DNA of 64,000 bases, from NCBI GenBank assembly GCA_903825105.1, contig CAIJZI010000009.1, positions 216 through 64,215 on the forward strand. The letters are read 5' to 3'. Both the position numbers and the translations under genes were made by a program. Source of the DNA: an uncultured bacterium. Lineage in GTDB: Bacteria > Patescibacteriota > Minisyncoccia > Phycocordibacterales > Phycocordibacteraceae. Positions 2,748-63,801 of this stretch are shown one piece after another. Below the pieces are notes generated by a model. The model was not told where the DNA came from. It searched no databases and worked only from the letters and a program-made list of their open reading frames with translations. Positions within the stretch are counted from its first letter, which is position 1; the number at the start of each line of letters is the position of its first letter.

Positions 2748-4364
2748 ATGGCAACGGCAATCGTGACCACCAAGGAGATTATCGCCTCGATGGATCGTTC
2801 GTCCACTGAAGACGCGGCTTTTGTCGAGAAGGCATACGAATTCTCGAAGAAAGCGCACGAGGGCACGCTTCGCTATTCTGGCGATCCTTATTTCATTCAC
2901 CCAGCCGCGACGGCGAAGACACTCGCAGAATACGGCATGGACGCCGTCACAATAGCGGCAGGGCTCTTACACGACACCGTCGAAGATGGCTGCACCACGC
3001 GCGAAGAAGTTGAAAAAGAATTTGGCACTGAAACCCTTTTCCTCGTCGATGGAGTGACGAAGCTTGGTGAACACAAATATCGTGGCGCCGAACGACATGC
3101 AGAATCACTCCGCCGACTTCTTGTTGCGACTGCGAGCGACATTCGTGCACTGGTTGTGAAGCTCGCGGACAGAAAGCATAATCTCCAAACACTCGGGCAT
3201 GTGCCTGAAGAAAAGCGTCGCCGTATTGCACTCGAGACGCTCGAGATCTACGCGCCGATCGCCGATCGCCTTGGTATGGGGAAAATGAAAAGTCAGCTCG
3301 AGGATCTCGCCTTCCCCTTTGTTGATCCAGACTCTGCTGTACACACACAGGAGATGCGGAAGTTAAAGACACAAGAGTCTGAGGCGGGGCTCGCACAAGT
3401 TCAGAAAAAATTGGGGAAAGAGCTCGCGAGCAAAGGGTTAAAAAAATTCAAAACCGATATCAGAATGAAAGGCTTGTGGAGCCTGCACCAGAAATTAAAA
3501 AGAAAGCATGATGACATAAATCTCATTCACGATATCGCTGCGCTCCGTATTGTCGTTTCGACGGTTGAAGACTGCTACACCACGCTTGGCATCGTGCATT
3601 CGCTCTATAAGCCACTGCCGGGAGAGTTTAAAGACTATATCGCCTTCCCGAAGCCAAACGGTTATCAGTCGCTCCACACAACCGTTGTGACGCCAGAGGC
3701 TGGCATCGTAGAGATACAGATTCGCACCGAAGAGATGCATCTGCACGCACAGTTCGGTATCGCGTCGCATATGTCCTATAAACAACTGGGGAAAGATGTG
3801 AATAAATTGAGCTCCGATGCACAAAAAAGTAAATTCTCTTCGCTCTCCTTTTCATGGATTCGCTCTCTCGTGCCGTCGCTTATGAGAATGTCTAAAAAAG
3901 AAAATCACGATGAAAAAGCGCCCGCCAAAATACCGCCCTGGCTCGCTGAGCTCGCAGACGCGCACGCGGCGGTTACCGGTTCAAAAGAATTCGTCGATGG
4001 ATTAAAAGAGGATTTCTTTTCACACCGCGTTTTCGTCTTCACGCCCAATGGTGATGCGGTCGACCTCCCAACAGCATCAACGCCGATTGATTTTGCCTAT
4101 GCGATACACAGTGACCTCGGCAACCACCTCCAAGGCGTTAAAGTAAATGGGAAGCTCGTTTCTTTTGACACACCCCTTGATAACGGCGATGTGGTTGAAA
4201 TAATTCGTCGCGAGAATGCGCGCCCGTCACAAAAGTGGCTCGATATAGCGAAAACCTCGCTCGCTCGTCGGCACATCCGGGCGACCCTTGGTATGACCGA
4301 ACAGTCAAAAAAGCCTATTAAAATAGCGCGAAAAAGAAAAACGAAAAAGAAAGAAGAAAATTAA
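2748..4364 (+). CDS. relA/spoT: Bifunctional (p)ppGpp synthetase/hydrolase, short RelA/SpoT homolog with HD, synthetase and TGS domains and no ACT domain
   Basis: HD motif (IHPAATA...LLHDTVED), RelA/SpoT synthetase core and a TGS-like C-terminus; only 538 aa. Confidence 0.85.
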   Translation: MATAIVTTKEIIASMDRSSTEDAAFVEKAYEFSKKAHEGTLRYSGDPYFIHPAATAKTLAEYGMDAVTIAAGLLHDTVEDGCTTREEVEKEFGTETLFLVDGVTKLGEHKYRGAERHAESLRRLLVATASDIRALVVKLADRKHNLQTLGHVPEEKRRRIALETLEIYAPIADRLGMGKMKSQLEDLAFPFVDPDSAVHTQEMRKLKTQESEAGLAQVQKKLGKELASKGLKKFKTDIRMKGLWSLHQKLKRKHDDINLIHDIAALRIVVSTVEDCYTTLGIVHSLYKPLPGEFKDYIAFPKPNGYQSLHTTVVTPEAGIVEIQIRTEEMHLHAQFGIASHMSYKQLGKDVNKLSSDAQKSKFSSLSFSWIRSLVPSLMRMSKKENHDEKAPAKIPPWLAELADAHAAVTGSKEFVDGLKEDFFSHRVFVFTPNGDAVDLPTASTPIDFAYAIHSDLGNHLQGVKVNGKLVSFDTPLDNGDVVEIIRRENARPSQKWLDIAKTSLARRHIRATLGMTEQSKKPIKIARKRKTKKKEEN

Positions 4365-20477: not shown

Positions 20478-20510
20478 TGAAATGGTTATCCACAGCGTCG
20501 TTATAGATAC

Positions 20511-36141: not shown

Positions 36142-36451
36142 GAACTTATTTCCCTCTCGCGAGGGTGAGGCCGAAGCCAACTGTTCTAACAGTGTATATC
36201 CGACGAGATCTGTGTCAATAGCTAATAGTGGATAACGCATTATTCCTTCGCGCGCCAGTTTATTTCGAAAGAAATTGAATATTTGCCTGCAATCTTCCAT
36301 TTAGAAAATCTGAGGAAAAATAACTGAAATTTGTTTTCAGAAATCTTCCCGAATCCAAACCTGTTAAGTGTTAATTCTATGTCTATGACCATATCTGAGA
36401 TTATACACCCCTAAAATTTCTGTTGTATACTTAAATTTAAGTAATCTAATT

Positions 36452-38677: not shown

Positions 38678-38764
38678 CACAAAATAGCTATCCACAGAAC
38701 TCAAAACTACTTATTGACTTATCAGTCTTCCTGGCATAAGATATGACTGTATTTCTATGGAGGG

Positions 38765-45622: not shown

Positions 45623-45704
45623 AAAATAAGTAATCTAATAACAGGTTAATTGTAGCTTTTATAAGAGACTGGTCAATGCGGTTTTTATCTATTTGTGGAT
45701 ATTA

Positions 45705-57027: not shown

Positions 57028-58184
57028 TTCGCGACAGGATAAAAGGGGAAGAAATTTTACAAAAAGCGTCGACAATTGGACAGTATTATGGATTTACTCC
57101 ACTCTCGCTCCTTACTGCCGCGCCACGCCTAGCGGGCGCGAAGTCTAAAGCGGAGCCACCGAAACTCGATTTTAAAAATGATCCAAACGCTGAGACGATC
57201 TTCGGTTTTTTAAAACAATTTAAAAGTACTGGCTTGCCGCCCTCTTCACGACAACCTATGTTTGTCTGGCATACCAACATCGCTCCGGGTCGCCCGTTAC
57301 AAAAAAAAGTTACGGTACAATTCCACGCGCTCGGCACCGATCGCGCGATCGCGGACACAATTGTTATACGCGCGCTCGTTGCACTCGCGCGCGACCTCTT
57401 CCACGAAGAACCGACCGTTCGCATCAATTCAATGGGGGATAAAGAAACCCGCGCGCGCTACGCGCGCGAGCTCGGCGTCTTCTTTAGAAAGCGCGCCTGC
57501 GCACTCTCTGAAGAATGTCTTAATTTCGCTAAAAGTGATGTATTCCTCGCGGCAGAACACGCCATCAACAACGGCTACGCCGAAGAACTCCCTTCGCCAA
57601 CAGAACATCTCTCTGATGCGAGCCGAAAGCGTTTTGAAGACTTGCTCGAATATCTCGAAATGACCGAGACGCCCTACGAGCTCGCCCGACACCTGATGAG
57701 CCGCGGTGGCGTCTGGAGCGATATTTGTTTTGAAATAGTCGTTGGCGACAAACGCGTCGCGTGGGGCTCGCGTTATACCGATCTGGTCAAAACTTTTTTT
57801 AACAGTGGATCATTCCCTGCGACCGGCGCCGTCTTCCAGATCTCTGGATTGTCGACAGAAGAGAATAAAGAGATCGTGGTGAAGAAAGTGCCCCAATCGC
57901 GCTTACGATTTTCGTTTGTACATATCGGCGACGAAGCGAAACGCCTCTCGATACAACTCGCCGAGAACTTTAGAAAAGAGCGTGTGCCTTTAATGCAACA
58001 TATCGGCATCGAGTCTCTCACCGAGCAGCTCCATCTCGCTGAAAAACAGAATAGCCCGTACCTTCTCATAATGGGGCGCAAGGAGGCGTTAGAAAAAACG
58101 GCGATCGTGCGCAACTGCCAAACGCGCGAAGAAACCGTCATTCCGCTCGAAGGCATCATCGAGCGCCTACGCGCGTTTGTGTAG
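57024..58184 (+). CDS. hisS-like: Histidine--tRNA ligase-like protein (class II aaRS fold, divergent motif 2)
   Basis: Layout matches HisRS/HisZ (motif 3 GSRYTDL, C-terminal anticodon-binding LLIMGRKE), but motif 2 reads QPMFVWHTN...QFHALG instead of GPMFRYERPQ...QFHQFG. Confidence 0.55.
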   Translation: MIRDRIKGEEILQKASTIGQYYGFTPLSLLTAAPRLAGAKSKAEPPKLDFKNDPNAETIFGFLKQFKSTGLPPSSRQPMFVWHTNIAPGRPLQKKVTVQFHALGTDRAIADTIVIRALVALARDLFHEEPTVRINSMGDKETRARYARELGVFFRKRACALSEECLNFAKSDVFLAAEHAINNGYAEELPSPTEHLSDASRKRFEDLLEYLEMTETPYELARHLMSRGGVWSDICFEIVVGDKRVAWGSRYTDLVKTFFNSGSFPATGAVFQISGLSTEENKEIVVKKVPQSRLRFSFVHIGDEAKRLSIQLAENFRKERVPLMQHIGIESLTEQLHLAEKQNSPYLLIMGRKEALEKTAIVRNCQTREETVIPLEGIIERLRAFV

Positions 58185-58220
58185 ACAACTAATGCCTCGG
58201 TGTGCTAGAGTGCTTTCATT

Positions 58221-58484
58221 ATGACAGCAGGAACAAGAATAGAAGTCGCGCGCGGAAAGAACGAGAGTTCGACTGCGCTTATTCGCCGATTTACCCGCCG
58301 TGCGCAGGGTCTCGGCCTCGTGCGCGAGATTCGTAACAATCGCTACTGGCAGCGCACCGTATCGAAGAATGTTGAGCACAAGCGCGCCCTTATCACCAAG
58401 TCCCGCCGCGAGAATTACAACGAGCTCGTCAAACTCGGTAAGATAGACCCCGCAGCCAAGAAGAATGCCCGCGGCAAAAAATAA
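58221..58484 (+). CDS. rpsU: 30S ribosomal protein S21
   Basis: ALIRRFTRRAQGLGLVREIRNNRYWQR matches the S21 ALRRFKR...G...E.RRR.YE.P pattern. Confidence 0.65.
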   Translation: MTAGTRIEVARGKNESSTALIRRFTRRAQGLGLVREIRNNRYWQRTVSKNVEHKRALITKSRRENYNELVKLGKIDPAAKKNARGKK

Positions 58485-58881
58485 AGAAGCGCGTCTTTCG
58501 ATTAAGAATCTCACTCGTCACGATGTGACGAGTTTGCCGTTTAAAAAAATCGCTCGCGATATCGCTCTGGGATGGGAAATTTCTCTTGTTTTTGTGGGGC
58601 CAAAAAAAGCGCGAGAATTAAATAAAAAGTTGCGCAATAAAGAGTACATTCCAAATGTGCTTTCTTATACTGTTGGTAAAAAGTCAGGCGAGATTTTCAT
58701 CTGCCCAAGTGAGGCAAAAAAGCAGGCTGCCAACTTTAACCTTACACCTTCCACCTTTACCCTTCTGCTATTTATTCACGGTGTATTACACATACAAGGA
58801 TGGGATCATGGTGTTAAAATGGAACAATGCGAGAAAAAAATTCTAAAACGCTATGTCGCGAAGGATAGCGACCGGCATTGA
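58465..58881 (+). CDS. ybeY: rRNA maturation endoribonuclease YbeY
   Basis: HGVLHIQGWDH zinc-binding H3xH5xH motif. Confidence 0.85.
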   Translation: MPAAKNKEARLSIKNLTRHDVTSLPFKKIARDIALGWEISLVFVGPKKARELNKKLRNKEYIPNVLSYTVGKKSGEIFICPSEAKKQAANFNLTPSTFTLLLFIHGVLHIQGWDHGVKMEQCEKKILKRYVAKDSDRH

Positions 58882-60013
58882 TATCGGCACCTACCAGATA
58901 AAGGTAGTCGTCGTCGAAGAAATTATAGATAAACCGAGTGGCGCTCGGCGGTTGCGTATTATTGGTACGGGCCTCGCCGAGTCAAAAGGCTTGCGCCACG
59001 GCTACATTGTTAATAAAGAAGAGGTCACTTCATGTATTCTTAAAGCGAAGCAGCAGGCAGAAACATCTGCACATATCCAGATCCGCACAGGATTCCTCGC
59101 TGTGGGAGGCATCTCTCTCGACGAGTCACGCGCGACCGGCTTCGCGATTATCTCTCGCGCTGATCAAGAAATAACCGCCATCGATCTAGAAAAAGCCGGT
59201 AAAACAGCGCGAGAAGCCGCAGCCCCTGGATTTATAAATCGCCATGTTCTGCACAGCATTCCGCTCGAATACCGCATCGACGGCACCAAGGTCTTGGGGT
59301 ATCCACTCGGTATGAAAGGTATTCGTCTTGAAGCTGATTACCTTTTTGTCACCTGTCTATCACAACACGAGGAGACGCTTCTTAAAGCAGTCGAGGACGC
59401 CGATATCGAGATTGTCGACCAGATGGCTTCCCCACTCGCCGGCTCCTATGTCCTCCTCGATGGCGACCAGAAGATGAAAGGCTGCGTGCTCGCCAACATT
59501 GGCGCGGAGACTATTTCTATAGTTGTCTATGATGAGGGCATTCCTGTTTCGGTAAAAGTATTCCCGATGGGTTCGAGCCATGTAACAGACGACATCGCGC
59601 TCGGCCTTCGTATTTCTCTTGAAGAAGCGGAGAGGATAAAAATCGGCAGACTATCGGGGCAGATGTATCCGCGTAAAAAAATCGACGACATTATCGGCAG
59701 CCGGTTGTCTCTTATGTTCGCTCTTATTGACAAACATTTGAAATCACTCGGACGACGCGGCCCATTGCCTGCAGGCATAATTATTTCTGGAGGCGGAGCT
59801 GGTATCGGGACGATTAGTGATGTGGCGAAGGGCTCACTTAAACTCCCTGCGCGACTCGCAGAGTCTAAGATCTCTACTGATACAAAAATCCGCGACGCCA
59901 CCTGGGCAGTCGCTTACGGTCTCGCTCTTTGGGGTCTCACCGGTGATACCACTATTCAGAAAAAAAGCATCACTTCTCAAATCGGAAAGTTTTTCCACCA
60001 GTTTTTACCGTAG
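58853..60013 (+). CDS. ftsA-like: Actin-like ATPase, FtsA-like cell division protein (PilM not excluded)
   Basis: N-terminal phosphate-1 motif GIDIGTYQIKVVVVE and ASKHA-fold layout; near ftsZ. Confidence 0.55.
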   Translation: MSRRIATGIDIGTYQIKVVVVEEIIDKPSGARRLRIIGTGLAESKGLRHGYIVNKEEVTSCILKAKQQAETSAHIQIRTGFLAVGGISLDESRATGFAIISRADQEITAIDLEKAGKTAREAAAPGFINRHVLHSIPLEYRIDGTKVLGYPLGMKGIRLEADYLFVTCLSQHEETLLKAVEDADIEIVDQMASPLAGSYVLLDGDQKMKGCVLANIGAETISIVVYDEGIPVSVKVFPMGSSHVTDDIALGLRISLEEAERIKIGRLSGQMYPRKKIDDIIGSRLSLMFALIDKHLKSLGRRGPLPAGIIISGGGAGIGTISDVAKGSLKLPARLAESKISTDTKIRDATWAVAYGLALWGLTGDTTIQKKSITSQIGKFFHQFLP

Positions 60014-60015
60014 GC

Positions 60016-60375
60016 ATGAGCTCAATCAAGCATATAGAATTTTGGGTTTCAAATTTAAAAATTTCTTTGGATTTTTATACAGAATTATTTTCAATAATCG
60101 GTTGGTCTCATGTGGATGAGAATGGTTTTTCTTGTGACGGTACAAAAATCTATTTTTATGAAAAACAAGAATTGGACATACATACAAAAGTTCCTGGCCC
60201 GCGACACATTTGTTTTCAAGTCGGCGGTAAAGATATTGTTGATTTAGTTTCAAATTCGCCAATTATAAAAAATGGAATTTTACACGGACCAGATGTACTT
60301 CACGAGAACGGTAGTTATATGCTTGTGTTTAAAGATCCTGATAATTATATTTTAGAGGTGGCATATAAATCTTAA
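60016..60375 (+). CDS. VOC-family (glyoxalase/bleomycin-resistance fold) protein
   Basis: IKHIEFWVSNLKISLDFY beta-alpha-beta-beta-beta module. Confidence 0.65.
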   Translation: MSSIKHIEFWVSNLKISLDFYTELFSIIGWSHVDENGFSCDGTKIYFYEKQELDIHTKVPGPRHICFQVGGKDIVDLVSNSPIIKNGILHGPDVLHENGSYMLVFKDPDNYILEVAYKS

Positions 60376-60409
60376 TTTAAGAAAGAAAATCGAGTAATCC
60401 ACAGCTCCA

Positions 60410-60437
60410 TTGAAAATTAATATTGATTTGATATAGT
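60410..60437 (+). promoter_or_regulatory. Sigma70-like promoter (TTGAAA-16-TATAGT) for the 60444 small RNA
   Basis: Hexamers and spacing read directly; the predicted TSS coincides with the first base of the RNA P1 helix. Confidence 0.6.
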
Positions 60438-60443
60438 GATCTT

Positions 60444-60535
60444 GTGCCTGCGGGCGCAAGCCCCTTATCGGCTAAGGATTACCTAAGCTGAAGGCAGGCA
60501 CATCAGAGGAACCGCCTTTATTGGCGGTTTTTCTG
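60444..60535 (+). ncRNA. Candidate 92-nt small RNA: three-way junction plus intrinsic terminator
   Basis: P1 GUGCCUGC/GCAGGCAC encloses GGGC-GCAA-GCCC and GCUAAGG-AUUA-CCUAAGC; terminator aaccgcc-tttatt-ggcggtt plus U5; no ORF; next gene is on the opposite strand. Confidence 0.5.
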
Positions 60536-60538
60536 ATT

Positions 60539-61021
60539 TTAATCTTCTGCCTCATTTCTATAAAGTTTCTGCTTCCCTATTTTCCCAATCGGCATAACAC
60601 TCCAAAAATGTAATTTTCCATCCCCGATTTTTCTTACAATTACTCGTACCAAAATCATTGACTCTTCACCGACAATGTCGTGGAAGCCCCAATACTCAAC
60701 TTGTTTGGTTTTACTAAATCCATCTTTCCCAGGCTCTCCCCATTTTTCGAGAGTATTTCTATATTCCTGAACCGTCCCAGCATTACGGAGAATATGCAGT
60801 GCTGGTTTTAACAATCTGAGTTTCAGTCGTTGTTCTTGAATATTTCTTGGTTGTCTGTTTGGTTTATTCAACAAATGATTAAAACCGTCAGAAGTAAGGG
60901 AGATATTTAATTTGAAATACGGACAGAAAATTTCTGGGGTCGATTCATACAACTCTCGCGATGTTTCTATAAGTTTATGATAGTCGCGAATAGTTCTTTC
61001 TATATCAATCTTCTGTTCCAT
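60539..61021 (-). CDS. Hypothetical protein (160 aa)
   Basis: ORF with AT-rich codon usage; no recognisable motif. Confidence 0.35.
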   Translation of the reverse strand: MEQKIDIERTIRDYHKLIETSRELYESTPEIFCPYFKLNISLTSDGFNHLLNKPNRQPRNIQEQRLKLRLLKPALHILRNAGTVQEYRNTLEKWGEPGKDGFSKTKQVEYWGFHDIVGEESMILVRVIVRKIGDGKLHFWSVMPIGKIGKQKLYRNEAED

Positions 61022-61113
61022 TCGTCAATTTTAGCATCTCATATCTCTCTATTGTCAATATTTGCATTCGTCACCGTTCTGCTATCATAACGGGAGCCAT
61101 TATTTATACATAT

Positions 61114-62370
61114 ATGTCAAAAAGAATTGAACCTGAAATTGAGACATTCGCGCGGATTCGTGTCGTCGGTGTTGGTGGTTCTGGGAAAAATGCGATTAAT
61201 CACATGATTAATTCGAAGGTGCGCGGTGTTGAATTCGTGGCAGTTAATTCTGACGCCCAAGATCTCCACCGTTCTCTCGCGAAGCGTAAGATTCATATTG
61301 GAAAAAATTTGACGCGCGGTCTCGGCACTGGGATGAACCCAGAGCTCGGTCGCAGAGCGGCTGAAGAGACGCGTCAAGAAATCCAAGAGGCTCTTTCAGG
61401 GAGCGATATGGTCTTTATCACCTGCGGACTTGGCGGAGGTACCGGTACAGGAGCGTCATCCGTTGTCGCTAAGATAGCCAAAGAAGTTGGGGCGCTCGTG
61501 ATCGCTGTCGTGACCAAGCCATTTTCATTTGAGGGAGCACAGCGACGCGATATTGCTGAACAAGGACTCGTCGAACTTAAAAAAGAAGTCGACGCTTTTA
61601 TTATCATTCCAAATGATAAACTGCTCGCGATAGTCGATACAAAGACTTCTGCGAAGAACGCATTCGCGATGTGCGACGAGATCCTGCGACAAGCGGTTGA
61701 GGGCGTCTCTGACATCATCACCACTCCGGGAGAAATCAACACCGACTTCAACGATATTAAAGCGATTATGGAAGGCGCGGGCCCTGCTCTTATGGGCATT
61801 GGTATCGCCGAGGGCGACGAGCGCGCGAAAGAGGCTGCACATCAGGCAGTCAATTCCCCTCTCCTCGATGTCTCGATTAGTGGTGCGAGAGGCATTCTCT
61901 TCGTTGTTGCTGGTAGCGAAGATTTGAGTCTTATCGAAGTTCAGGAAGCCGCGAAGGTTATCAACGAATCGGTTGATAAGAACGCGAAGGTTATCTTCGG
62001 TATTATGCGCGATGAGAAATTGAAGAAGGGTCAGGTACGCATTATCGTTATCGCGACCGGGTTCCCTGACGCATTAAATTCTGGACACTCTGGCTCGATA
62101 CTCGAGCGATCACTCTTCTCTATGCCAGCAGAAAAGCGTGTTGAAGAGCGTGGGCATATCTATCATGAAGTTTTAAAACGCGATGATAAAGTTGAAGAAA
62201 AAGTGAAAGCTACAGAGATAAAAGATGAGCCGATTATTACTCCAGTTGAGAAGGATGAACCAATCGTGACGGCGAAGCCGCACAAGCGCGAAGAGGCTCC
62301 AGCAGTCGTCCCAGAAGATGATGAATCGTGGGGCGCGATCCCGGCGTTTTTGCGTCGCCATAAGAAATGA
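61114..62370 (+). CDS. ftsZ: Cell division protein FtsZ
   Basis: Tubulin signature GGGTGTG (CGLGGGTGTGASSV) and a C-terminal variable tail. Confidence 0.95.
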   Translation: MSKRIEPEIETFARIRVVGVGGSGKNAINHMINSKVRGVEFVAVNSDAQDLHRSLAKRKIHIGKNLTRGLGTGMNPELGRRAAEETRQEIQEALSGSDMVFITCGLGGGTGTGASSVVAKIAKEVGALVIAVVTKPFSFEGAQRRDIAEQGLVELKKEVDAFIIIPNDKLLAIVDTKTSAKNAFAMCDEILRQAVEGVSDIITTPGEINTDFNDIKAIMEGAGPALMGIGIAEGDERAKEAAHQAVNSPLLDVSISGARGILFVVAGSEDLSLIEVQEAAKVINESVDKNAKVIFGIMRDEKLKKGQVRIIVIATGFPDALNSGHSGSILERSLFSMPAEKRVEERGHIYHEVLKRDDKVEEKVKATEIKDEPIITPVEKDEPIVTAKPHKREEAPAVVPEDDESWGAIPAFLRRHKK

Positions 62371-62480
62371 TTCTTCGAATCATTTCTTTCTCCCTGCACT
62401 CGTTCGAAAGAATAAAATAAGAATTTCATTCTTTACTCACTCGTTTGGTAGTAAGAAGTAGGTTGTAGAAAAACAGAAAA

Positions 62481-62509
62481 ACGCGGCGACCTTCGGTCAC
62501 CGCGTTTTG
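62481..62509 (+). terminator. Rho-independent terminator of ftsZ
   Basis: acgcggcgacc-ttcg-ggtcaccgcgt followed by TTTT. Confidence 0.7.
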
Positions 62510-62529
62510 ATTGATGAAGTAATGAACAA

Positions 62530-62763
62530 TTATTGCACAAGGGTTCTGATTTCTGATTTTTCTAACAATTTCGATGGACACATCGTGTATGCCAAATACT
62601 GGCGAGCTCCCGTGTACAAGCCTTTACAACTCGGGCATTTCGCAGGGCTGTATTTAATGGGAAATGAAACATTTGTGATGAACCTAATGAGTAGGACACC
62701 GCAATAAATACATTTACCATTTGGAGGAACGGCATTACCGTCGGTCTGGCTGAACACTGGCAT
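62530..62763 (-). CDS. Small zinc-ribbon-like protein (CxxC...CxxC, 77 aa)
   Basis: CIYCG ... CPSC pairs; strong GGGGAGG RBS 5 nt upstream of the ATG. Confidence 0.4.
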   Translation of the reverse strand: MPVFSQTDGNAVPPNGKCIYCGVLLIRFITNVSFPIKYSPAKCPSCKGLYTGARQYLAYTMCPSKLLEKSEIRTLVQ

Positions 62764-62856
62764 GAAGACCTCCCCGCATCCTTCTTAAGCATAATCTTAT
62801 CTGCACAATGGTCAACTGCAGATTTTACTGAAGTATTTTGTTATACTATTCGCACT

Positions 62857-63801
62857 ATGCACGACCTTATAATCATCGGTGGAGGGCCAGCGGGAGTGGC
62901 AGCAGGTATTTATGCCGCACGAAAGAAATTAAAAACGGTTTTAATCGCTGAAGAGATCGGTGGGCAATCTGTTGTTTCTGATGGTATTGAAAATTGGATC
63001 GGCACGCCCAAAATTAGTGGAGCCGACCTCGCGAAGTCGCTTCGCGCGCATCTTGATGCGGTCAAAAATGACATGGTCGAACTCGCCCTCGGCGAACGCG
63101 TCGTCTCGCTCGAAACCGCTAGCGGCGAAACACCTAAGCTGCTTAGGTATTTCGCCGCTAAGTTAGCATCAGGGAAGCTTTTTGAAGCGAAGGCGGTGCT
63201 TGTCGCCTCGGGCGCCGGCCGTAGAAAGCTCGCGATCCTTGGCGCAGAAAAATTCGAGAACAAAGGCATCAGCTACTGTGCTTCCTGCGACGGACTCCTC
63301 TTCGCGGGTCAAGATGTCGCTGTTATCGGCGGAGGAAATGCCGGTTTCGAGACAGCGCTCCAGCTCCTCGCCTACGCGAAGTCAGTCACGCTCATTCATC
63401 GTCACGCCGAATTTAAGGCTGACGCAACGACCGTAGAAAAGGCGCTCGCGCACCCAAATATGCGCGTGATAAAAAACGCCGAGCCAATTGAAATTGTTGG
63501 CGATAAGTTTGTGAGTGGATTGAAATATAAAGATAAAGATTCTGGCGAAGTAGCGGAAATCGCTGTAACGGGCATATTCGTCGAGGCAGGCGTTTTGCCG
63601 AACACTGATTTTATAGAAAAAATTGTCGCCTGCGACGAGACAAAGAGAGTTAAAATTAATCCTCACAATCAGCGCACGAGTGTTGACGGGATCTGGGCTG
63701 CAGGCGACTGTACCGACGAGCTCTACCACCAGAACAATATCGCCGCCGGCGACGCTGTCAAAGCGCTTGAGGATATTTATTTTTGGATTAAGAAACAGTA
63801 A
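62857..63801 (+). CDS. trxB: Thioredoxin reductase
   Basis: FAD motif IIIGGGPAGVAAGIYAARK, redox-active CASCDG, NADPH motif AVIGGGNAGFETA. Confidence 0.9.
   Translation: MHDLIIIGGGPAGVAAGIYAARKKLKTVLIAEEIGGQSVVSDGIENWIGTPKISGADLAKSLRAHLDAVKNDMVELALGERVVSLETASGETPKLLRYFAAKLASGKLFEAKAVLVASGAGRRKLAILGAEKFENKGISYCASCDGLLFAGQDVAVIGGGNAGFETALQLLAYAKSVTLIHRHAEFKADATTVEKALAHPNMRVIKNAEPIEIVGDKFVSGLKYKDKDSGEVAEIAVTGIFVEAGVLPNTDFIEKIVACDETKRVKINPHNQRTSVDGIWAAGDCTDELYHQNNIAAGDAVKALEDIYFWIKKQ

Follow-up and report, generated by a model that had tools for sequence, protein, structure and literature searches.

Small RNAs that converge on a protein gene are known from type I toxin-antitoxin pairs whose antisense RNA overlaps the toxin transcript at its 3′ end, such as bsrG/SR4 and txpA/RatA of Bacillus subtilis. 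The hammerhead ribozyme, a small three-way junction whose parallel stems a loop contact holds in place, has a conserved core in which CUGANGA links stem I to stem II and GAAA links stem II to stem III, with H17 left unpaired where cleavage occurs. Closest in description is a class reported in 2017 (PMC5737381), comprising DUF3800-I, drum, skipping-rope and FuFi-1, whose members are complex, terminator-ended RNAs that rarely lie in 5′ untranslated regions (UTRs), are each tied to one nearby protein family and recurrently show the trinucleotide UAA. Its authors found no self-cleavage in the three RNAs that they tested and gave no functional hypothesis (PMC5737381), and no later functional work on the class was found in the literature. 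Here we describe a gene for a structured small RNA (sRNA) and its convergent protein gene, p160, which lie between ftsA and ftsZ in a 64,000-nt stretch of DNA (the window; GenBank assembly GCA_903825105.1, contig CAIJZI010000009.1, positions 216 to 64,215) from an uncultured bacterium of the Patescibacteriota. The RNA is apparently an uncatalogued family, it is most likely the partner of p160, and we tentatively read it as antitoxin-like.

Family-wide evidence supports reading the locus as an independent sRNA gene and not a leader: it has its own promoter and terminator, and its structured transcript would be about 90 nt long. Its elements and the convergent gene are the following, in window coordinates.

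60410-60437, + strand: whole sigma-70-type promoter, 10 of 12 consensus matches, TG present
60410-60415, + strand: −35 box TTGAAA, as read in the window sequence
60429-60430, + strand: TG of the extended −10 element (TGaTATAGT, 60429-60437)
60432-60437, + strand: −10 box TATAGT, with a 16-nt spacer to the −35 box
60444, + strand: G, first base of P1 and predicted transcription start, 7 nt after the −10 box
60444-60501, + strand: 58-nt core, a three-way junction (by fold z score, covariance model and pairing)
60444-60451 with 60494-60501, + strand: helix P1, 8 bp, GUGCCUGC with GCAGGCAC
60452-60463, + strand: hairpin P2, GGGC-GCAA-GCCC, stem 60452-60455/60460-60463, GNRA loop GCAA at 60456-60459
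60464-60468, + strand: J2/3, CUUAU (the strand from P1 to P2 is 0 nt)
60469-60477/60482-60490, + strand: helix P3, 9 bp, CGGCUAAGG/CCUAAGCUG, with an A.A mismatch at 60474/60485 and the loop AUUA at 60478-60481
60491-60493, + strand: J3/1, AAG
60502-60537, + strand: intrinsic terminator (extended stem), with a T run to 60541, core AACCGCC/GGCGGTT and a 6-nt loop
60539-61021, − strand: p160, gene for a 160-amino-acid (aa) basic protein, convergent partner of the sRNA
61028-61058, − strand: probable p160 promoter, −35 box TTGACA at 61053-61058 and TGcTAAAAT with the −10 box at 61028-61033

The promoter proposed in an earlier note on this DNA, TTGAAA and TATAGT 16 nt apart with the start at the first G of P1, is present in the sequence. 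In a promoter scan of positions 58000-63000 it was the only site to combine a score of 10/12 with an upstream TG; the scan gave 10 promoter-like sites in these 5 kb against 8.1 expected by chance, so a single match is no proof by itself, and we rate this promoter above chance because it is conserved across the family, along with the −10 register, the terminator and the pairing of the copies. Family members were collected with a metagenome scan whose pattern covered only P3 and the start of the 3′ strand of P1, and the sets of 99, 91 and 87 distinct sequences used below come from the matches listed in it. When the 99 distinct upstream regions were aligned on the first base of P1, the −10 register was fixed relative to that base (94 regions have T at −12, 95 have A at −11 and 94 have T at −7), which places the transcription start at the first P1 base, a purine throughout (G in 79 and A in 8 of 87). 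TG is frequent at −15/−14 and TTG at −35 to −33, while the spacer and the other positions are unconserved. A hairpin with a T run is found in 92 of the 99 members, its stem sequences covarying freely, and RNA lengths are predicted at 86-96 nt (median 89 nt), in agreement with the 92 nt given earlier. In the window the T run abuts and overlaps the stop codon of p160. No + strand open reading frame (ORF) of at least 30 aa starts inside the RNA and no + strand gene follows it, so that the ORF list, together with the family-wide promoter and terminator, upholds the previous description of a free-standing, ORF-less RNA that is not a leader.

The metagenome scan returned at least 120 loci, of which 117 are true copies further to that of the window. 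Copies occur at the Hainich and Lac Pavin sites, for example. Variants that escape the scan pattern exist, for instance with CCAAAGC in P3, and the family is therefore larger than the scan shows. In a scan of the window with Rfam 15 at gathering thresholds only tRNAs reached threshold; at E ≤ 10 the locus gave only terminator-driven matches (for example RNAI, 23.9 bits against 47), as did the majority variant (locus L086), and 15 other copies gave no match. These scans bear out the earlier statement that the RNA matches neither hammerhead nor purine riboswitch nor signal recognition particle (SRP) RNA, and the checks that it had proposed, an Rfam search and a search for homologues and covariation, yielded no family match in the first case and the further copies with compensatory changes in the second. 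A literature search by sequence string and by topic, with the supplement of PMC5737381 outside its coverage, found no description of the RNA. The family, which comes from Paceibacteria of the candidate phyla radiation (CPR), is thus apparently uncatalogued.

The minimum free energy fold equals the structure described above, at −53.3 kcal/mol against −28.5 ± 3.3 (z = −7.5; 0 of 200 shuffles as stable), and it reproduces the 8-bp closing helix, the GNRA hairpin and the terminator that had been pointed out before, all of which are in the sequence; P3, previously drawn as GCUAAGG-AUUA-CCUAAGC, is also present but its length had to be corrected to 9 bp with an A.A mismatch. R1, a covariance model of the RNA core, finds a single copy in the window, which scores 83 bits on the + strand as against 15 on the − strand. 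Standard pairs occupy all 1739 helix positions in the 87 distinct cores (100%, in this pattern-derived set), a figure that falls to only 30-45% when the partner columns of the same set are shifted by one to three, and three of its pairs show compensatory double changes. We also assembled a wider set by adding copies retrieved via p160 or via a P2/junction pattern, in which P1 and P3 are unconstrained. Here both sides have changed in 12 of 20 pairs (P1 7/8, P2 1/4, P3 4/8), 98.5% of positions pair and none of 500 shuffles reached any of five measures, in an alignment that was fitted to the model and so somewhat favours the structure. All three helices are backed by covariation, P2 being the weakest, and a clear compensatory case is locus L208, whose P1 reads GUGUUCGU/ACGAACAC. 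G.U pairs are common (the last P1 pair is U.G in 79 of 87) and would be C.A mismatches on the other strand; together with the strand-biased R1 score, their frequency shows that the constraint acts on the + strand RNA and not on DNA.

The core is far more conserved than its partner gene, with a mean column identity of 89% against 45% in the p160 alignment, and, unlike the core, the promoter spacer and the terminator sequence drift freely between copies. The same holds between the window and its closest relative, locus L005, whose cores differ at two places (C-G to U.G, and loop GCAA to GUAA) while the promoter spacer and the terminator have diverged freely, with compensatory changes in the terminator stem. 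P2 is 4 bp long in all copies, and its loop is GNRA in 83 of 87 (GCAA 37, GAAA 26, GUAA 19, GUGA 1) and NCAA in the rest. J2/3 is CGUU in 67 of 87 and CUUAU, CUUUU or CUUCU in 19, and J3/1 is AAG in 85. Every member retains the first four pairs of P3 with an A-rich element above them, which in its canonical form sets UAA opposite UAA, the 3′ strand CCUAAG facing UAAGG; distant members carry different A-rich internal loops at the same height of P3, and the distal part and the loop vary freely. The classical 11-nt receptor of the GAAA tetraloop (CCUAAG...UAUGG), as found in group I introns and some riboswitches, has CCUAAG as one of its strands. Since the fixed 4-bp P2 would set its loop at the height of the P3 element, we infer from the sequence a rigid, compact fold in which P2 may stack on P1 and the P2 loop may dock into the A-rich part of P3.

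The constant partner of the RNA is the convergent gene p160, and not the upstream VOC gene. In 12 of 12 independent p160 genes, the window included, which span 37-100% aa identity, the RNA lies convergent and directly behind the p160 stop codon. Conversely, of the 91 distinct RNA loci that extend 600 nt or more downstream, p160 is full-length in 69, present only as a truncated remnant in 7 and absent from 15; in the 69 full-length loci the median distance between the end of the search pattern and the p160 stop codon is 41 nt. At loci that lack p160, DUF3800 takes the convergent position in two cases, and NYN, HigB-like or zincin in one each. An RNA without p160 keeps its structure, as in L100, where P2 is compensated (GAGU/GCUC), and at L157 the RNA adjoins ftsZ and p160 was not detected. 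This asymmetry, in which p160 was never seen without the RNA but the RNA sometimes without p160, is what a toxin and its antidote would be expected to show, and it is our main argument for the antitoxin-like reading. The RNA is most likely the partner of p160.

The p160 protein has about 100 close homologues, whose organism names are CPR or plain 'bacterium' and which are hypothetical or unnamed save for one evidently wrong label, 'ribosomal protein L28'; no p160 relatives were found on viral contigs. A profile search of 1.8 billion cluster representatives gave 1264 relatives at E ≤ 1e-3, those listed being mostly stand-alone proteins of 130-165 aa. The AlphaFold2 model (predicted local distance difference test score, pLDDT, 88.6) comprises a long N-terminal helix, a beta hairpin, three helices and a four-stranded antiparallel sheet, and Foldseek in BFVD gave weak matches (template modelling score, TM, ~0.4), 'large polyvalent protein' entries among them. 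Pfam LPD3 (PF18798) is matched by 29 of 109 distant relatives (E ≤ 0.01, best 6.4e-7), no other family recurring, and, at E ≤ 1, by 7 close relatives out of 60 (the best with 0.0022), the window p160 not among them; individual matches span the whole profile, yet score 23.9, 23.3 and 18.3 bits against a curated Pfam cut-off of 27. On these profile matches p160 is probably a distant relative of LPD3, one of 40 uncharacterised domains of the polyvalent proteins that phages and conjugative elements inject and deploy against their hosts (Iyer et al. 2017, PMC5512222); in Helicobacter prophage proteins LPD3 is found together with predicted RNase (PBECR) domains (PMC5512222).

Across the wide family H49 and R59 of p160 are invariant, and Tyr, Ser and some Gly, Pro and Phe positions nearly so. 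The family is basic (median isoelectric point 9.6), and this basicity and the invariant His and Arg would fit an enzyme or a binder acting on nucleic acid. In the window the −10 box of p160 ends 6 nt before the ATG, and by eye a −10-like box 6-10 nt before the ATG, with no Shine-Dalgarno sequence, recurs in many of 67 distinct p160 upstream regions; the p160 mRNA is probably leaderless. Antisense action of the RNA on a p160 5′ UTR was accordingly set aside as a candidate, as a leaderless mRNA leaves no such target.

The pair sits between two cell-division genes, with the VOC gene and a DnaA-box-like motif upstream of it.

58853-60013: ftsA, flanking the insertion
60016-60375, + strand: VOC/glyoxalase gene (Pfam Glyoxalase, E = 5e-4), upstream neighbour of the sRNA
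60395-60403, + strand: TAATCCACA, DnaA-box-like, one mismatch to the consensus TTATCCACA, 6 nt upstream of the −35 box
61114-62370: ftsZ, flanking the insertion

The earlier note had treated both neighbours of the RNA as scenery. For the VOC gene this is right, as it is missing from L005 and from almost all other RNA loci and is incidental, outside the cassette; for p160 the linkage described above shows otherwise. No terminator was found between the VOC gene and the sRNA, so read-through transcripts could also end at the sRNA terminator. A VOC/glyoxalase gene also occurs near the cassette in L213/L214 (894-1271, − strand), divergent from p160, which may be a coincidence.

A search with FtsA gave 76 loci from species-representative genomes (Candidatus Kaiserbacteria, Paceibacterota and other Patescibacteria metagenome-assembled genomes). 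The gap between ftsA and ftsZ is about 80-100 nt in 70 of these 76 relatives; in the window it holds the VOC gene, the RNA and p160, in L005, the closest relative (86% FtsA identity), only the RNA and p160, and the pair also occupies the spacer of a few other loci. No RNA copy was found in 74 other Kaiserbacteria ftsA loci. The same spacer holds a MazF/PemK toxin gene in L071 (1899-2222), a D12 DNA methylase together with an ORF of 283 aa that may encode a restriction enzyme in L078 (5266-7303), and ORFs without assignment in L007 (5278-6039), L025 (5240-5686) and L062 (5280-5753). These varied insertions point to the spacer as a landing site for selfish or defence cassettes.

Beyond this spacer, clustering of the neighbours revealed no conserved gene besides p160. 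The neighbours of the cassette include serine and tyrosine recombinases, MazEF, TraG/ParB-like genes, a DpnII-type restriction gene, HTH_17 with an integrase, and tRNA genes, and the RNA and p160 probably form a mobile two-gene cassette in variable, island-like contexts. A mobile element with terminal repeats was considered and rejected, as none of the flanking repeats, direct or inverted, was convincing. The only 30-nt pair, a direct repeat with 70% identity, brackets the ends of the p160 coding sequence (60527-60556/60993-61022); the common CAGAAGATT is read in different frames, and the repeat is therefore probably due to chance. In L082 a group I intron (3720-3977, − strand; Rfam 73 bits) lies by an apparent tRNA 3′ end (GGTTCGATCCC...CCA), directly upstream of the sRNA promoter, and tRNA genes are found directly upstream of the sRNA in L097 and L210.

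Motifs like TTATCCACA, in either orientation, lie at about −53 to −45 in 36 of the 99 family promoters, against 1% of background windows. In the window, sites with at most one mismatch number 21 where 10.3 are expected, and none of 100 shuffles reaches 21; they include 20486-20494 (+), 36227-36235 (−), 38688-38696 (+), 45694-45702 (−) and 60395-60403 (+), plus 16 more, and several copies lie 6-17 nt upstream of the TTGAC −35 boxes of unrelated promoters. Regulation by DnaA specific to the sRNA was rejected on that ground, since the same motif precedes these unrelated promoters. The motif looks like a promoter-proximal element of the lineage, recognised by DnaA as a global regulator or by another factor.

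Three copies on viral contigs lie outside the cassette. In L220 a 46-nt miniature junction (986-1031; GAGGU-GGGCGCAAGCCC-CGUU-CAG..CUG-AAGA-ACCUC) lies inside a phage transfer-messenger RNA (tmRNA; 771-1121; Rfam 49.5 bits, E = 1e-18), in the region usually taken up by pseudoknots 3 and 4, and the junction module is thus not confined to the p160 cassette. In L221, a 43.6-kb contig, a divergent core (112-173) stands 150 nt upstream of an array of 16 tRNAs (323-1715); it has neither terminator nor p160 and may belong to a larger structured RNA. Compensatory changes have replaced the whole of its P1, which reads GUGAAACAC/GUGUUUCAC; P2 and the junction have the majority form of the family (loop GAAA, J2/3 CGUU). 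L222, a predicted viral contig, carries a canonical copy (488-549) with a good promoter, no recognisable terminator and no p160, which may be the 5′ end of a longer transcript.

The reading that we favour, and hold tentatively, is that the RNA is a p160-binding partner of antitoxin-like function. The core fold would be a specific ligand of p160, and the strong promoter would supply the RNA in excess, so that it would bind and restrain p160, possibly an RNA-directed enzyme to judge from its basic surface and its invariant His and Arg. Within a selfish or defence cassette, such an RNA would serve as an antitoxin or immunity factor, and the common terminator, through about 35 nt of complementarity between the 3′ ends, may add a possible layer of antisense control. 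A more specific version would make the pair a new type of RNA-protein toxin-antitoxin or defence system, in which a convergent, single-copy RNA neutralises an LPD3-family enzyme that attacks a conserved cellular RNA, possibly by mimicking the substrate; in this full form we consider it rather doubtful.

Several observations weigh against an antitoxin-like partnership, in which the direct contact between the RNA and p160 is predicted from their genetic linkage. Chief among them is the contrast between an RNA that hardly varies and a p160 that diverges to 37% identity. It suggests that the RNA also or instead contacts something highly conserved, and a partner such as the ribosome, a tRNA or a metabolite fits the invariance of the RNA at least as well; the two could possibly be reconciled if the RNA mimicked a conserved cellular RNA targeted by p160. 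Intact RNAs occur without a trace of p160 in 15 of the 91 loci and a miniature lies inside a phage tmRNA, so that the fold can function without p160 alongside. Type III RNA antitoxins are tandem repeats on the toxin strand, whereas the window RNA is a single copy on the opposite strand, and p160 fell into no toxin, nuclease or defence family so far described, since searches of Pfam, PADLOC, PHROGs, NCBIfam and PDB sequences, and of the PDB with Foldseek, were all negative. Concerning the fold itself, GCAA, GAAA and GUAA loops occur in comparable numbers, which is a misfit to a strict pair of GAAA loop and 11-nt receptor.

An alternative that we judge unlikely, yet the best of the others, gives the RNA a job of its own (ligand binding, catalysis or contact with a conserved cellular machine) and makes p160 an accessory or a frequent neighbour. 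It would account for near-invariant sequence in helices as well as junctions, for fixed helix lengths with a possible tetraloop/receptor pair, for the intact copies without p160, beside DUF3800 genes and in viral contigs, and for the miniature junction inside tmRNA; it also fits the PMC5737381 class, whose members are terminator-ended, rarely in 5′ UTRs, near one protein family and UAA-rich. However, p160 is linked more tightly than a casual neighbour would be, being always convergent with its stop about 40 nt from the core. The absence of a same-strand downstream gene and of an alternative pairing with the terminator excludes a classical riboswitch, and no ribozyme model in Rfam matches. The resemblance to ribozyme or aptamer architectures suggested in the earlier note therefore found no backing by computation, with no such Rfam model at E ≤ 10, no hammerhead core and no downstream gene.

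The overlap of the two transcripts raises a second alternative, which we consider improbable: a type I-like arrangement in which the complementarity of about 35 nt at the 3′ ends controls p160, for instance through RNase III cleavage, and the junction only stabilises the RNA. The genes are convergent, with a terminator hairpin directly behind the p160 stop in essentially all loci; by eye, most loci have an A-rich linker (ACAAAGA) before this hairpin, so that on the other strand a U-rich tail comes after the hairpin, which would make the terminator bidirectional, and the architecture resembles that of bsrG/SR4 and txpA/RatA. A mere stabiliser, however, needs neither 89% identity nor fixed helix lengths nor a conserved internal loop, the acting part, the terminator, would be the least conserved part, and RNAs without a partner would have no target. 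Furthermore, p160 is a basic, soluble-looking protein of 160 aa and not a small hydrophobic peptide.

Still less probable, in our view, is a lineage-specific housekeeping RNA whose gene serves, like those of tRNA and tmRNA, as a hot spot of integration, with p160 and the other genes as cargo. The strong conserved promoter, the variety of convergent genes (p160, DUF3800, NYN, HigB-like, integrase), the recombinases near about 10 loci and the tRNA genes directly upstream in L082, L097 and L210 would agree with it. Against it, the RNA and p160 are jointly inserted relative to 70 of 76 sister genomes, in which ftsA adjoins ftsZ, and no copy lies in the ftsA loci of 74 other Kaiserbacteria. Near homologues of p160 are few (about 100 clusters, about 14 with an NCBI source label), and the whole pair is found in unrelated contexts. 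Lastly, that there is no RNA gene at all, and that the two imperfect palindromes with the adjoining DnaA-box-like motif are a DNA site of recombination or replication, or, no terminator being found before the RNA, the 3′ UTR and terminator of the VOC gene, is very improbable given the strand-specific pairing (G.U pairs; R1 83 against 15 bits), a promoter register and terminator kept in about 95% of copies, the absence of the VOC gene almost everywhere else and the occurrence of the motif before unrelated promoters.

CPR bacteria are almost unexplored for non-coding RNA. Both the RNA family and its pairing with a protein are new, they come from a phylum that has been little studied, and the biology proposed for them is credible. 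The RNA family is experimentally tractable, with a 58-nt core and more than 100 natural variants, and p160 has a confident predicted structure with no recognisable fold or function. Should the RNA be an inhibitor or a cofactor of p160, the pair would represent a new architecture of RNA-protein toxin-antitoxin or defence systems, would assign a function to LPD3 and would provide a model for the class of terminator-ended, protein-linked RNAs for which no explanation was found in the literature since 2017. In the more specific version, with neutralisation of an LPD3-family enzyme, the domain would gain its first function and its first RNA ligand, and a rationale for that class would be suggested. 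Should the RNA instead be an aptamer or a ribozyme, it would be a new class of either.

Compared with known RNAs, the core resembles the hammerhead in being a three-way junction of similar size in which a tertiary contact between two hairpin arms is possible. It is not a hammerhead: the catalytic core is absent, J2/3 being CGUU or CUUAU/CUUUU and not CUGANGA and J3/1 being AAG, there are 0 nt between P1 and P2 and hence no unpaired cleavage-site nucleotide, and no model matches at E ≤ 10. A classical riboswitch is likewise rejected, as no + strand gene follows, nothing pairs alternatively with the terminator and no Rfam riboswitch matches; a terminator that comes right after a stable, GC-rich P1 of 8 bp and that drifts in sequence makes a conserved anti-terminator pairing impossible. 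SRP RNA, tmRNA, 6S RNA and RNase P have no Rfam match on the locus, the window RNA lacks a tRNA-like domain, and ARAGORN found no tmRNA in any locus. With the GNRA/11-nt receptor pair the fold shares a GNRA loop in 83 of 87 cores and a CCUAAG at the right height for a 4-bp P2; it departs from it in having UAAGG and not UAUGG, in a symmetric element of 7 on 7 that misfits the canonical asymmetric 6/5 register, and in loops beyond GAAA.

Among toxin-antitoxin systems, the type III systems ToxIN, CptIN and TenpIN also combine a structured RNA with a small basic protein in island-like settings, and the RNA is present wherever the protein is. Type III was nevertheless rejected: there are no tandem repeats in 59900-61300, the single RNA copy is convergent, on the opposite strand, and p160 matches no ToxN/AbiQ-type family or PADLOC model, neither p160 nor three homologues having a match to ToxN/AbiQ, CptN or TenpN in Pfam, PADLOC or NCBIfam. 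The type I pairs bsrG/SR4 and txpA/RatA are similar in that an sRNA and a protein gene converge and their transcripts overlap at the 3′ ends. Type I was rejected as well, since p160, with 160 aa and a basic character, is not a short hydrophobic membrane peptide of under ~60 aa, and since the overlap comprises only the terminator of about 35 nt, with the conserved part of the RNA outside it. Unlike LPD3, which is found in polyvalent proteins of phages and conjugative elements, the p160 domain forms a protein by itself in bacterial genomes and has an RNA as its companion.

The RNA differs from the PMC5737381 class in matching none of its Rfam models, in having an LPD3-like and not a DUF3800 partner, in belonging to Paceibacteria (CPR), and in a fixed layout, convergent and with a shared terminator, as opposed to 'either orientation, either side'. 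It shares with that class a compact conserved structure, a 3′ terminator, a position outside 5′ UTRs, a link to a protein family and UAA trinucleotides, and two copies of the family adjoin DUF3800 genes. The window RNA is, by this description, of the same kind as the RNAs of that class, and it stands beside their named families as a separate one.

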